Shown here: positions 70-39,742 of the stretch, piece after piece
Layout: every line of letters starts with the position of its first letter
How positions within the stretch are numbered: position 1 is the first letter of the stretch
IMG/VR virus record: IMGVR_UViG_3300006871_000008
Span: 1-64,000 of that record
Source: a virus
DNA: 64,000 nucleotides
Reading direction: 5' to 3' (one strand)
Notes under the pieces: model-generated
Seen by the model: only the letters and a program-made list of their open reading frames with translations
Told to the model about the DNA's origin: nothing
Databases searched by the model: none
Program-made: the position numbers and the translations under genes

Positions 70-352
70 GTCCGAGCAAAGCCTTTGAATCCGGCTGAGC
101 GCACTGTACCCTATCCTCGCTGCGTTTGATACCCTGTCCTTTGCCATGACTATCCTCATAAGCCTGAATGTCGTTGTAAACCTGCGTACTAAGCGTTTCC
201 GCTAGGGTCGCTATAAGTCGGATGCGTTTGGCATACGGGCGGCAGGCCAGCGGCCCGGCTTGCGAAAGTTCCGCTGCTGCGGTCCATAACCGATCTAGCG
301 ATTGCATGACCGCACGCCGGTCAGACGGTGTAGAGTGTATTCTAGTCGCCAT
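62..352 (-). CDS. hypothetical protein
   Basis: ORF; ATG 352 overlaps end of upstream gene. Confidence 0.6.
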   Translation of the reverse strand: MATRIHSTPSDRRAVMQSLDRLWTAAAELSQAGPLACRPYAKRIRLIATLAETLSTQVYNDIQAYEDSHGKGQGIKRSEDRVQCAQPDSKALLGHA

Positions 353-728
353 CGGCCCCGCCCGCCAAGGCCGCAATAGCCATATCTTTGTCCGCCTCAG
401 AAAGTTCGTCAGCGACCATCGGCTCGAAGATTTCCGTATCTTCGTCGTCATCGGCATCCCCACCCAATCTGTCGCCACCGTCGTATTGCTCATATAGCTT
501 CGCCTCAATCTGTTGAAGCACAACCGTTGCGAGAATCAACCGCTGAGCATACGGCTCAAGCGATTCAACCGTGTATTCGGTAAGATTCTCAATAACGTCA
601 GGCAGTATCTCAAGCGCCCCAACCAATTCCTCCATCATCTTCTGTTGTTTCAGTTGGGACGGACTATACCGCTTGGTCGCTTCCGCCGCTGGCGTCCCTG
701 GAACCGGATAATCTTGATCGCCGAGCAT
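342..728 (-). CDS. acidic hypothetical protein (frame stays open to ~1007, may be longer)
   Basis: AGGGAGGT SD 7 nt before ATG 728. Confidence 0.6.
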   Translation of the reverse strand: MLGDQDYPVPGTPAAEATKRYSPSQLKQQKMMEELVGALEILPDVIENLTEYTVESLEPYAQRLILATVVLQQIEAKLYEQYDGGDRLGGDADDDEDTEIFEPMVADELSEADKDMAIAALAGGADGD

Positions 729-3319: not shown

Positions 3320-4228
3320 TTAGTCGGCGTATTCGCCAACATACTCACGCCACGCATCTTGCCACCGCTCGTCGTAATCCGGCACGTCGTTCCAGGGGTC
3401 ACGGTCCTTCAAGCCCATAAGAGCGGCATACTCGCTGTCCGGGTCACTGGCCTCAAAGGGGTCAGAAGTCGCGGAATCGTGGTACTTGCCGCTGCCGGTA
3501 CTTGTGCCACTGTTCTTAAAGCCGATGTACCGGCCACGACCACCGCCCTGCGTGCGACTGTCCCATTCCATCCAGGCTCCCCGACACTCAAGAGCCTTCA
3601 AGTTGGCGGTGTCGATACCACCCGCCGCATTGATCGAAAGCCGCATTGTCTCGCCTTCGGTAAAGGCGTGATACTCGATATTGCCGAGCGCGGCCTTCAA
3701 ATGCTTGTAGTCGGACGAGAAGTAATAAACGTCGCCGACCTTGCAAATGGCAAGGCAGTTATTGTGGGCTTGCAGATACAGCCCGGCCCCGTCAGTCCAG
3801 ACAAGACCCCAATAACCGGAAACATCGCCAAGAGCCTTTTGATAATCACCCTCGGCTTGGTGGATAGCGTCGATCAAATACATAGAATCGACAGCGTAGG
3901 TAGTCGGCGCGCCGACGATACCATTGTGCGCCCCGACGATGTTACCGTAGCGGAACGGGTGGGCGTTCTCCCGCACGTTATGGCCCCGCGTGCCGTGGCG
4001 AGTGTGCCCGGCGACGAACCATAGGCCGTTGCCCTCAGCCCCGGCAAGGTATTTGTTCAGCTTGTTACCCGTCAAGGCGTCGATGGGCGATTGCGCCCGC
4101 TTCCAGATTTTGCCGTCGCTGCCGAAGAATCCGATTGCTTCGTTTCCGCGCTCCGCATTGGCGAGAGCGAGTGTACGAAGCGCACCGAAGTCAGCACCCT
4201 TACCGATTGAGCCGAAGATTCCACACAT
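3320..4228 (-). CDS. class II (Ntn) glutamine amidotransferase
   Basis: N-terminal MCGIFG (Cys2 nucleophile), RG, HTRHGT, NAHPF, AHNG, VDS motifs; AAGGA SD. Confidence 0.92.
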   Translation of the reverse strand: MCGIFGSIGKGADFGALRTLALANAERGNEAIGFFGSDGKIWKRAQSPIDALTGNKLNKYLAGAEGNGLWFVAGHTRHGTRGHNVRENAHPFRYGNIVGAHNGIVGAPTTYAVDSMYLIDAIHQAEGDYQKALGDVSGYWGLVWTDGAGLYLQAHNNCLAICKVGDVYYFSSDYKHLKAALGNIEYHAFTEGETMRLSINAAGGIDTANLKALECRGAWMEWDSRTQGGGRGRYIGFKNSGTSTGSGKYHDSATSDPFEASDPDSEYAALMGLKDRDPWNDVPDYDERWQDAWREYVGEYAD

Positions 4229-4308: not shown

Positions 4309-4336
4309 ATTATACACCGGCCCCGCCCGTTGTCAA
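4309..4336 (-). promoter_or_regulatory. consensus sigma70 promoter for GATase
   Basis: TTGACA-N16-TATAAT; TGA in -35 is the amidoligase stop codon. Confidence 0.85.
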
Positions 4337-5799
4337 CTTGCCAGCACAAGATTTTGCTCCGCAATCATCCGGTCGAACGAAGTTTCCGATTCTATCGGTT
4401 GCTTCATCTTTGCGGCCCGCTTCATGTAGTACGACCGGAGTGTGCCGTCATCGCTGATAATATCCATAATGGCGGCAAACTTCTGCACCACGGACTTACC
4501 GGCAAACAAGTCATAAACCTCACGCTCCGGCAGCTTCGCCAGAGCATCGACAAACCGCGTATGGATTTTAACCCAATTGGCGACTTTATCGTAGTTGGTG
4601 GTTCCGCTGTGTAAACGGATTTCAACGGTATGGTGGCGCTGGTATGCCTGCCAGTTGAGCCAGTGGTAACGGTCGTCCGTTCTTTCCAGAATGTAGTTGA
4701 AGCCCTGCCCGCGAATGTCGTCAACCGAATAGGGCAGACGGTCGCAGTAGGAATTTCCGGCACGTTTCTTACTAACGAACCTTGCCCAAACATCCTCAGT
4801 CGCCGTATAACCGACAGCGACGGAAGCAAGCTGAGCATTGTTAAGGTCGCCACAATCGACGTGAACGTGGTAGCCGCAAGAGCTATCGACGGTCCAATCG
4901 TGTTCTCTGCCAAAGGCACACAAGTTGGAAACGGCCTCAAGACCCTCATCACCCTGCAAGACGGGTGACACGAATTCCTTGCCGCTAGACAAGGAACCAT
5001 CGTACTTAACGCCAAAGGGCGTTTTACCCCGTAGCCCGCCGTGATGCCTGCAACCGGAAATTTCCAACTCGACACCGAATTTGCGTTTGCTGCCGACGTT
5101 ATCGAATGTAGTGCCATCGACACGCCGACCTTGCTCCCACTCCGCTTCGTCGTCATCTTCGTCACAGGGCGAGCAGTTGGCACAGTACGCATCGCCGTCG
5201 TACTCGTCGGTGTAGGCAACATCGTCAAAGATGATAGCCTGCCCGCAACCGCAGCAAGTGGTAAACCTGCCGCTAAAGCACTCAGAGCAATAAAGCGCGG
5301 CATCGCCAGCAATCGGAGAAGCCTGCAACGCTGTAGTTTCGGTTTCAGCGCCACAAGCGGAGCAATGCGAATACAGCGACATATAGCAAGCCTCACAATG
5401 CGGTAGGTAAGAATCTTCGGCGTAGAACTCGCTGCCGACAGCGGTTTCCCGCTCGCAGGCGGCACAAGCCACAAATCGCTCCCCGTAGCAATCGCGGCAA
5501 AATTCGTGGTTATCGGCACTAGCCCGGCGTTCCGTCACGTCGGTATGCTCGCCGCATCCGGTACAAACGATGTAGTCGATACCCTCGCGTGGTGCTTCGG
5601 TGGGCAAGCGGCCTACTGGTGGCAGCCCGGCAGTCGGCAGCCCGCAGCCCGGCAGGACGTGCTGGCGCTCTACCATCGGCATTAGGACCGTGGCGGCGTG
5701 CCAATCGCTAGTCCATTGTGCGGGTGACGGTGCTGGCCGCTCGCGGCGTGCATTGCGGCGACTTCGGCGTAGCTCTTGTGTGCGGCGTGAACGTGGCAT
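4333..5799 (-). CDS. amidoligase (COOH-NH2 ligase, Amidoligase_2-like) with N-terminal repeated zinc ribbons
   Basis: FGVELE, DGSL, EFVSP, SCGYHVHV, LNW, TVEIRLHSGT motifs; 8 CxxC pairs upstream; leaderless start. Confidence 0.88.
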   Translation of the reverse strand: MPRSRRTQELRRSRRNARRERPAPSPAQWTSDWHAATVLMPMVERQHVLPGCGLPTAGLPPVGRLPTEAPREGIDYIVCTGCGEHTDVTERRASADNHEFCRDCYGERFVACAACERETAVGSEFYAEDSYLPHCEACYMSLYSHCSACGAETETTALQASPIAGDAALYCSECFSGRFTTCCGCGQAIIFDDVAYTDEYDGDAYCANCSPCDEDDDEAEWEQGRRVDGTTFDNVGSKRKFGVELEISGCRHHGGLRGKTPFGVKYDGSLSSGKEFVSPVLQGDEGLEAVSNLCAFGREHDWTVDSSCGYHVHVDCGDLNNAQLASVAVGYTATEDVWARFVSKKRAGNSYCDRLPYSVDDIRGQGFNYILERTDDRYHWLNWQAYQRHHTVEIRLHSGTTNYDKVANWVKIHTRFVDALAKLPEREVYDLFAGKSVVQKFAAIMDIISDDGTLRSYYMKRAAKMKQPIESETSFDRMIAEQNLVLAS

Positions 5800-5805
5800 A
5801 ACTAC

Positions 5806-5833
5806 ACTATAACCTATCGCGTCGTGTTGTCAA
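5806..5833 (-). promoter_or_regulatory. sigma70-type promoter (leaderless amidoligase)
   Basis: TTGACA-N16-TATAGT, ATG at +7. Confidence 0.85.
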
Positions 5834-5834
5834 G

Positions 5835-5906
5835 AGGCACTTGTTGGAATCGGACCAACTTAGCCCGGTTGGAAACCGGGAACATCGCCAGCAATGTTTA
5901 AGTGCC
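5835..5906 (-). tRNA. atypical tRNA-Gly(UCC)
   Basis: GGCACTT/AAGTGCC acceptor, ACAT/ATGT D stem, CCCGG-TT TCC AA-CCGGG anticodon arm, GTTGG-TCCGATT-CCAAC T arm, U73; A8/U14 and C55 non-canonical; no CCA. Confidence 0.8.
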
Positions 5907-5911
5907 AAAAG

Positions 5912-6010
5912 TTGCAGGGCGGGGAGTCGAACCCCGATAGCGGCGCGCTCGCGCTGTCCTTGTCCGGTGTTTACGACCTTGCGGTTCGCACCCTATTAGA
6001 CGACCCTGCC
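5912..6010 (-). ncRNA. tRNA-like RNA lacking a canonical anticodon loop, with hairpin inserted in the D-loop
   Basis: GCAGGG/CCCTGC acceptor, CGGGG-TTCGACT-CCCCG T arm, GTCT/GGAC D stem, inserted GCAA-tetraloop hairpin. Confidence 0.7.
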
Positions 6011-6019
6011 ATGTTTGCC

Positions 6020-6205
6020 TTAGTTGCGGAAGTACCGGGACAGGGCGAATAGCGCGATGCCGACCGCCGACAAGTCACGGAACGCAAAACCCTGCAAGTA
6101 GGGCGAAACGGCAAGATAGTTGCTCGCCAGCCAAACCATGCCAGGGACGATAACCGACGCTGCCAGCAAAATGCCGACAATGTGCGCGAAAGTGGCCTTC
6201 GCCAT
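6020..6205 (-). CDS. small two-TM membrane protein
   Basis: two hydrophobic stretches; GGAG SD. Confidence 0.7.
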   Translation of the reverse strand: MAKATFAHIVGILLAASVIVPGMVWLASNYLAVSPYLQGFAFRDLSAVGIALFALSRYFRN

Positions 6206-6250: not shown

Positions 6251-6278
6251 ATTATACCGCGCTTTGGTCCGTTGTCAA
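6251..6278 (-). promoter_or_regulatory. consensus promoter upstream of membrane protein and tRNA-like pair
   Basis: TTGACA-N16-TATAAT. Confidence 0.85.
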
Positions 6279-39569: not shown

Positions 39570-39581
39570 TTGTTTCTCCAA

Positions 39582-39655
39582 TCGGGGAAGTCGGACTCGA
39601 ACCGACGACCTTCGCAGTATCAGTGCGATGCTCTAACCAACTGAGCTACTCCCCA
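39582..39655 (-). tRNA. tRNA-Ile(GAU)
   Basis: TGGGGAG TA GCTC..GAGC, TCGCA-CT GAT AC-TGCGA, GTCGG-TTCGAGT-CCGAC, A73; no CCA. Confidence 0.92.
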
Positions 39656-39742
39656 ATAAAGTGCCGCCCCGCAAATGCGTGGGCGGCTAAACTGGTTCTT
39701 AACGGTTGGCACTCGTAAACCAGACCTTCCAGCAGACCCGTA

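Follow-up and report, generated by a model that had tools for sequence, protein, structure and literature searches.

The non-proteinogenic glycine tRNAs of staphylococci, represented by NP1, NP2 and NEW, carry a UCC anticodon and serve the cell-wall enzymes FmhB, FemA and FemB. Their affinity for EF-Tu amounts to -9.5 kcal/mol by calculation and to -9.6 to -9.7 by measurement, compared with a mean of -10.8 for bacterial Gly-UCC tRNAs (PMC3239215), and they lack elbow bases including U55 (PMC4574755). They nevertheless keep all the determinants recognized by glycyl-tRNA synthetase (GlyRS), namely U73, G1-C72, C2-G71, (G3-C70), C35 and C36, and form a lineage present only in staphylococci (PMC7826273). 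Phage tRNAs with unusual bodies have been described as well: the tRNA-Gly(UCC) of phage T5 (T5t04) is noted in its GenBank record as an effective amber suppressor once the anticodon is changed, and a variant T5 tRNA-Lys is resistant to AriB, the PARIS nuclease (PMC11464382).

The window, by which the whole analysed stretch of 64,000 nt is meant, corresponds to positions 1–64,000 of a virus record of 90.8 kb. This record is a tailed phage, and its gene products include a tape-measure protein, DNA polymerase, helicase, primase and ligase. The stretch was found unchanged in six rhizosphere metagenome DNA runs, with identical contigs and no population variation, and no RNA runs are among the sequencing runs listed as holding it. 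A metagenome-assembled genome (MAG) of Pirellulales, G001, contains a syntenic prophage-like region (G001:C5:610,000-698,710, loci L144-L148, extending to the terminus of a 699-kb contig) that shares the order of about 40 genes, with 26–59% protein identity, so the host lineage is most likely Pirellulales (Planctomycetota), and this MAG was used as the proxy host in the comparisons below.

Four tRNAs were called in the phage record (Table 1). Three of them, tRNA-Ile, tRNA-Glu and tRNA-Thr, possess U8, A14 and TTCGA loops and score 49–67 bits, although the accepted tRNA-Glu and tRNA-Thr contain stem mismatches. The fourth, tRNA-Gly(UCC), is a 7/4/5/5 cloverleaf in which 21 of 21 stem pairs are Watson-Crick and none is G-U. 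Its acceptor stem GGCACUU/AAGUGCC (pairs G1-C72, G2-C71 and C3-G70, discriminator U73) is followed by A8 and A9 and by the D stem ACAU/AUGU with the D loop UGCUGGCG (U14, G15, G18, G19, G21). The anticodon stem CCCGG/CCGGG closes the loop UUUCCAA (U33, UCC, A37), the variable loop CUAA has four bases, placing G15 opposite A48, and the T stem GUUGG/CCAAC, with U51-A63, carries the loop UCCGAUU (U54, C55, C56, A58). U73 is followed by CUU, so CCA is not encoded. The initial annotation of the window had listed the four Watson-Crick stems, the UCC anticodon with U73, A8/U14 in place of U8/A14, the T loop with C55, G-C at 2:71 where C2-G71 is usual, and U-A at 51:63, and all of these are as it gave them.

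Table 1 Features around the tRNA-Gly(UCC) gene and the other tRNA genes of the phage. Coordinates are window positions unless indicated otherwise.
Feature	Coordinates	Strand	Evidence or remark
Class II (Ntn) glutamine amidotransferase-like protein, starts MCGIFG	3320..4228	minus	PHROG search
Amidoligase (PF12224)	4333..5799	minus	Pfam 8.9e-20; PHROG amidoligase; alignment
Promoter TTGACA-16-TATAGT	5806..5833	minus	starts 1 base past C74 of tRNA-Gly
tRNA-Gly(UCC), 72 nt	5835..5906	minus	ARAGORN; Rfam tRNA alignment; RNAfold
tRNA-like RNA without anticodon loop, 98 nt	5913..6010	minus	copies in L004 and L005
61-aa hydrophobic ORF, upstream of both RNAs	6020..6205	minus	no family match
Consensus promoter TTGACA-16-TATAAT, 12/12	6251..6278	minus	sequence match
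tRNA-Ile(GAU), canonical	39581..39656	minus	ARAGORN; tRNA model
tRNA-Glu-UUC and tRNA-Thr-UGU, canonical	genome positions 80820-81035		outside the window

The gene was called by ARAGORN at default settings with the bounds 5834-5906, and the Rfam tRNA model (RF00005) aligned with it at full length (model positions 1-71) with 43.5 bits and an E value of 5.9e-8 in a 601-nt scan, the curated cut-off being 29 bits. Folding with RNAfold gave -30.1 kcal/mol (z -3.9), a value equalled by 0 of 200 shuffled sequences. Given the Rfam score and E value together with the RNAfold results, this is a real tRNA gene, beyond chance. It is also full length, with no stem mismatch and with an undamaged seven-base anticodon loop, and so lacks the usual marks of a pseudogene. 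The expectation that standard scanners would score it low was borne out only in part: it was missed by two filtered Infernal scans (the whole-window Rfam scan and the whole-genome tRNA search), but it is found by ARAGORN and lies above the Rfam cut-off.

The canonical tertiary core, consisting of U8-A14(-A21), R15-Y48, G18-U55, G19-C56 and U54-A58, is not preserved as a whole; the G19-C56 and U54-A58 contacts are retained, and both G18 and G19 are present. Positions 8 and 14 were compared across 147 distinct tRNAs, a set parsed from the proxy host together with its extensive tRNA arrays, from related phages and from the phage itself. The combination U-A was found in 111 of them, G-G in 10 and A-U in seven, these seven being the phage tRNA-Gly plus tRNA-Thr(GGU) and tRNA-Lys(CUU) of the arrays, with three copies apiece. 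Independence of the two positions would predict about one A8/U14 tRNA, and in all seven U14 is able to pair with position 21 (A or G). C55 is present in 4 of the 147 and is absent from all 23 tRNAs that ARAGORN calls in the tRNA region of T5, and A8, U14 and C55 occur together only in the phage tRNA-Gly among the sampled tRNAs (the 147 and those of T5). The idea that C55 is a planctomycete habit was discarded, the sole housekeeping tRNA with C55 being 1 of 28 orthologues.

The nearest parallel to the D arm was found in T5 tRNA-Thr(UGU) (T5t03, NC_005859 28667-28741), which has A8 A9, GCAU, UGUUGGUG and AUGC, almost the arrangement of the phage tRNA-Gly, the pattern common to both being A8 A9, NCAU, the eight-base loop UGYUGGYG with U14 and G21, and AUGN. 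T5 tRNA-Gly(UCC) shares the anticodon and A8 with the gene studied here and has a short D loop without A14. Both T5 tRNAs differ from it in keeping the TTCGA T loop (U55), in encoding CCA and in their low overall identity, and T5 tRNA-Gly additionally keeps C2-G71 and G3-C70. The annotated T5 tRNA-Gly gene (L149:4178-4253, minus strand of L149; NC_005859 29177-29252) was itself missed by ARAGORN at default settings.

Similar cores are present in the tRNA arrays of the Pirellulales MAG, that is, in the likely host lineage of the phage, where tRNA-Thr(GGU) and tRNA-Lys(CUU) have A8/U14 and ten tRNAs have G8/G14, with intact cloverleaves. The tRNA-Gly(UCC) genes of the arrays differ in having U8/A14, a strong T stem (-10.7) and U2-A71, and none of them resembles the phage gene. 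The arrays consist of about 25–40 genes each (G001:C1:555-563 kb, C1:959-964 kb, C9:47-51.5 kb and C1:668-671 kb; loci L041-L043 and L045), and many of their tRNAs have a non-canonical 8:14 combination (G8/G14 or A8/U14). In one array tRNA the anticodon is CUA, which reads amber, and the acceptor stem matches that of a neighbouring tRNA-Arg(UCU).

Selenocysteine tRNAs have a D arm with a 6-bp stem and a four-base loop and no 8-14 pair. According to RNAfold, U14-G21 and G15-C20 could likewise extend the D stem of the phage tRNA-Gly to six pairs with a CUGG cap. It differs from tRNA-Sec in its 7/5 rather than 8/5 acceptor/T arrangement, its short variable loop and its UCC instead of UCA anticodon. 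The U14-R21 pair probably lengthens the D stem, in this case together with G15-C20, with A8 docking on it. In view of the T5 tRNA-Thr D arm, A8 in T5 tRNA-Gly and the six array tRNAs, the A8/U14/R21 D arm is a recurrent natural design compatible with function and not a unique one, which weakens the initial description of it as a broken consensus. With its alternative core the phage tRNA-Gly is an unusual member of the phage tRNAs and does not represent a novel RNA class. It demonstrates that such a D arm can coexist with C55, an acceptor stem unlike that of glycine tRNAs and a weak EF-Tu stem in a cloverleaf free of mismatches, and thereby offers a small natural model of how far a decoder can dispense with the tRNA core, the GlyRS determinants and EF-Tu tuning.

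No homologue was found in IMG/VR with an exact or a degenerate pattern of the anticodon and T arms. A BLASTN search against 50,697 phage records returned chance-level fragments only, with no full-length match to any phage tRNA-Gly, and the matches in two planctomycete MAGs and 401 Planctomycetota genomes did not exceed 35 nt. When aligned, the nearest neighbours of the tRNA body are the array tRNA-Cys and tRNA-Gly, both equally close with identities near 65%, so this placement is not informative. The gene is absent from the syntenic loci L004 and L005, where small ORFs occupy the slot between the tRNA-like RNA and the amidoligase, and the Pirellulales prophage has neither the tRNA-like RNA nor tRNA-Gly. 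All three keep the amidoligase, and the amidotransferase was confirmed in L004 and the prophage. A further 15 virus records related by their DNA polymerase contain neither the amidoligase nor tRNA-Gly. In these data tRNA-Gly(UCC) appears as an orphan at present, known from one phage, and, being absent from all these relatives, it is dispensable; its absence from relatives bearing the amidoligase counts against an essential or module-bound role. With an orphan gene, selection cannot be shown by covariation.

The reading we favour, with a probability of about 0.5, is that tRNA-Gly(UCC) is a live non-canonical accessory tRNA able to decode and not a pseudogene; we infer that it is expressed, charged and used in decoding. 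It would be transcribed from the 6278 promoter jointly with the upstream tRNA-like RNA, excised by RNase P, completed at the 3′ end by the host CCA-adding enzyme and charged by the host GlyRS through U73, G1-C72, C35 and C36. In the alternative core U14-G21 and G15-C20 would lengthen the D stem, with A8 in place of U8, while C55 would loosen the usual G18-U55 elbow contact. The molecule would read GGA and GGG, its T stem being predicted as weak for EF-Tu among glycine tRNAs.

The intact stems are the main point in favour of this reading, as the initial annotation had also argued: all 21 pairs are preserved while four or five near-invariant unpaired positions are changed, a pattern that fits selection better than decay. 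By simple arithmetic, the chance that none of five random departures from the consensus would fall on the 42 stem bases of the 72 nt is about 1%. A functionless relic, recently captured or duplicated and now being lost, is rather unlikely for the same reason, since there is not a single mismatch or G-U pair in the stems, whereas mismatches do occur in the phage's own tRNA-Glu and tRNA-Thr, both accepted as tRNAs; moreover, the change at 8/14/21 is coordinated and recurs in expressed T5 tRNAs, and neither the anticodon loop nor the G19-C56 contact is damaged. Such a relic would, however, agree with the orphan status of the gene among all the relatives found, with its location in a variable slot filled by small ORFs in L004 and L005, with the alteration of several near-universal bases and with the loss of two GlyRS determinants.

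Four of the six GlyRS determinants are present in the gene (U73, G1-C72, C35 and C36), with 2:71 and 3:70 being G-C and C-G, respectively. Unlike the anticodon, the acceptor end GGC...GCC-U resembles its counterpart in tRNA-Cys. Judging from the determinants present, GlyRS could plausibly charge the molecule, though the replacement of C2-G71 and G3-C70 may make it poor. Codon usage of the phage was compared with that of about 52 kb of proxy-host DNA, a proxy which may differ from the true host. The phage over-uses GAA (0.52 vs 0.37 of the Glu codons), ACA (0.18 vs 0.08) and ATT (0.42 vs 0.19), which are the codons of its canonical tRNAs Glu-UUC, Thr-UGU and Ile-GAU, whereas GGA and GGG together are not over-used (23.3 vs 28.5 per 1000 codons in the proxy host). 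Codon supplementation thus explains the three other tRNAs but not tRNA-Gly.

An anti-defence function would account for a tRNA not called for by codon usage, as well as for a body unlike any of the nine glycine tRNAs of the proxy host. According to this explanation the altered molecule would be a substitute that escapes cutting or depletion of the host tRNAs and keeps GGA and GGG readable, the resistance of the T5 tRNA-Lys to AriB serving as a precedent (PMC11464382). We regard it as improbable: the weak predicted EF-Tu binding would make the molecule a poor replacement, and its anticodon loop is ordinary. The anticodon loop is the usual target of tRNA nucleases, and we know of no nuclease specific to glycine tRNA.

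The affinity for EF-Tu was calculated from the averaged pair values of Schrader and Uhlenbeck (PMC3239215, Table 2), taking as typical of the Gly classes a T stem close to the published mean of about -10.8 to -11.0. For the phage tRNA-Gly the pairs G49-C65 (-0.4), U50-A64 (0.0) and U51-A63 (+1.0) give -9.5 kcal/mol, so that by this calculation the strong T stem of a translational tRNA-Gly is missing. Eight of the nine proxy-host glycine tRNAs lie between -10.5 and -11.0, being 1.0–1.5 stronger, and the ninth, an array call with the ACC anticodon, is at -9.8; the Glu, Ile and Thr tRNAs of the phage are calculated at -11.0, -10.0 and -9.4. Set against the published mean and the proxy-host glycine tRNAs, the value suggests, by calculation only, that weak binding is specific to the phage tRNA-Gly, bearing in mind that four of five tested predicted single-copy outliers were not real outliers (PMC3239215). 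Because of this weak predicted hold on EF-Tu, the live accessory tRNA would decode marginally or as a reserve, without serving as a bulk source.

The comparison of the weak 51:63 pair with the staphylococcal non-proteinogenic tRNA-Gly made in the initial annotation is thus supported at the T stem, with -9.5 calculated for both, and the loss of the elbow base U55 is shared as well (PMC4574755). Beyond this the parallel breaks down. The staphylococcal molecules lose G18/G19 and keep C2-G71, whereas the phage gene keeps G18, G19 and C56 and loses C2-G71. They serve Fem-type transferases, of which no homologue (no PF02388 or PF13480 match) was found in the 90.8-kb phage record, and a cell-wall role of the staphylococcal type was rejected on this ground. 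Descent from the staphylococcal lineage was likewise rejected, there being no sequence kinship with the phage tRNA-Gly. An origin of the gene as an attP or a tRNA integration-site copy was also discarded, as the phage record contains no integrase or resolvase (no PF00589 or PF00239 match) and the gene has no match to the proxy-host tRNAs.

On the minus strand the order of elements is the promoter at 6278-6251, the 61-aa ORF, the tRNA-like RNA, about 5 nt, tRNA-Gly, the second promoter, the amidoligase and the amidotransferase. No terminator-like site was found between the 6251..6278 promoter and tRNA-Gly, and judging by this arrangement the promoter likely starts a unit comprising the small membrane ORF, the tRNA-like RNA and tRNA-Gly. 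The presence of a promoter upstream and the tandem position with a conserved tRNA-like RNA speak for a live tRNA-Gly, while the rarity of C55, the weak EF-Tu figure, the codon data and the absence from relatives weigh against its being a live decoder. A role outside bulk decoding is favoured by the EF-Tu prediction together with codon usage, the position of the gene and its C55.

The amidoligase is leaderless, its ATG at 5799 being the 7th base past the -10 box, and has a Cys-rich, LIM-like zinc-ribbon N-terminus for which solved structures give weak LIM-domain matches only. The amidoligase/amidotransferase pair is present in nine other loci (L001-L004, L006, L008, L009, L012 and L013). In the tRNA-like RNA an acceptor stem and a T arm are combined with a D arm that resembles that of tRNA-Glu and contains a hairpin insertion, and the 5′ part of this RNA (GUCGUCUAAU...AGGAC) matches the D arm of the phage's own tRNA-Glu. 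Copies with 76–79% identity are located upstream of the two closest amidoligases (L004:940-1042 and L005:194-290), with compensatory changes in the hairpin (ACC/GGU vs GCA/UGC) and in the T stem (CGGGG/CCCCG vs GCGGG/CCCGC). A covariance model, R1, scores the three copies at 95.6–119.5 bits, and its next best match in the phage genome is the phage tRNA-Glu, a weak one with an E value of 0.018. A pattern search of IMG/VR for this RNA gave a single match inside a coding region, which was dismissed as chance.

The location of tRNA-Gly, 5 nt past the conserved tRNA-like RNA, abutting the amidoligase promoter and far from the three other tRNAs, raises the question of whether it avoids EF-Tu and is linked to a module composed of the tRNA-Glu-like RNA, the zinc-ribbon amidoligase and the class II glutamine amidotransferase, in which it would serve as an aminoacyl donor, as an amine acceptor or as a scaffold RNA for non-ribosomal amide formation. 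The predicted EF-Tu affinity equal to that of the staphylococcal cell-wall tRNA-Gly, the loss of elbow bases such as U55 in the staphylococcal tRNAs too (PMC4574755), the lack of a reason for the gene in codon usage and the tRNA or tRNA-like genes adjoining other versions of the module (L006, the tRNA-Tyr of L001, L004 and L005) are all consistent with this. It is still unlikely, as L004, L005 and the Pirellulales prophage have the amidoligase without tRNA-Gly, in cultured phages of Arthrobacter, Porphyromonas and Bacillus no tRNA is annotated close to the amidoligase module, and tRNA and tRNA-like genes cluster in phages regardless, for example in T5. No PF12224 enzyme is known to use tRNA.

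The fuller proposal, that tRNA-Gly and the tRNA-Glu-derived RNA are working parts of an RNA-dependent, amide-bond-forming amidoligase/amidotransferase system of planctomycete phages, is quite doubtful. The zinc-ribbon amidoligase would then act on or with the aminoacylated tRNA-like RNA, by analogy with a transamidosome or a peptide aminoacyl-tRNA ligase, and the weak EF-Tu stem would keep tRNA-Gly out of translation. As an ordinary accessory phage tRNA, tRNA-Gly would be of little consequence; together with the conserved tRNA-like RNA it offers a concrete RNA pair for an amidoligase/amidotransferase module which is common in phages and has no assigned function, and the conserved RNA with the enzyme pair is more interesting than tRNA-Gly itself.

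Several minor observations concern the tRNA-like RNA and its surroundings. In L004, a promoter TTGACT-16-TAAGAT ends 7 nt ahead of the first base of this RNA. All three copies contain CACCGGA (window positions 5955-5965, minus strand), unpaired in the consensus fold, and this motif includes GGA, a codon for the UCC anticodon; that it pairs with tRNA-Gly(UCC) is pure speculation. In L005, a small Cys-rich protein is encoded between the tRNA-like RNA and the amidoligase (314-480, plus strand), with CxxC...YCGEC motifs resembling the N-terminal zinc ribbons of amidoligases.

Other tRNA-like genes were noticed as well. In L006, a locus with three amidoligase paralogues, a different one (4536-4657, plus strand) lies between an amidoligase and its glutamine amidotransferase, possessing a 7-bp acceptor stem, U8, a D arm and a TTCGA T arm (35.7 bits with the Rfam tRNA model), with about 64 nt replacing the anticodon arm. 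In virus record G003, a low-scoring tRNA-Tyr(GUA) with A8 and a five-base D loop (L001:4059-4140, plus strand, 41 bits) is located about 860 nt upstream of an amidoligase/amidotransferase/amidoligase block, and the same record contains a tRNA-Arg(ACG) with the T loop TCCGAAT (C55). Virus record G013, one of the DNA-polymerase relatives, has two tandem tRNA-like genes (L089:1501-1752, minus strand, 43 and 48 bits) whose anticodon-loop inserts of 59–64 nt are alike (UAAAC.CUCGA ... GGGUCG ... UUAUCUA), and the tRNA-like RNA of the window carries CGUAAACAC at a place comparable to these inserts.
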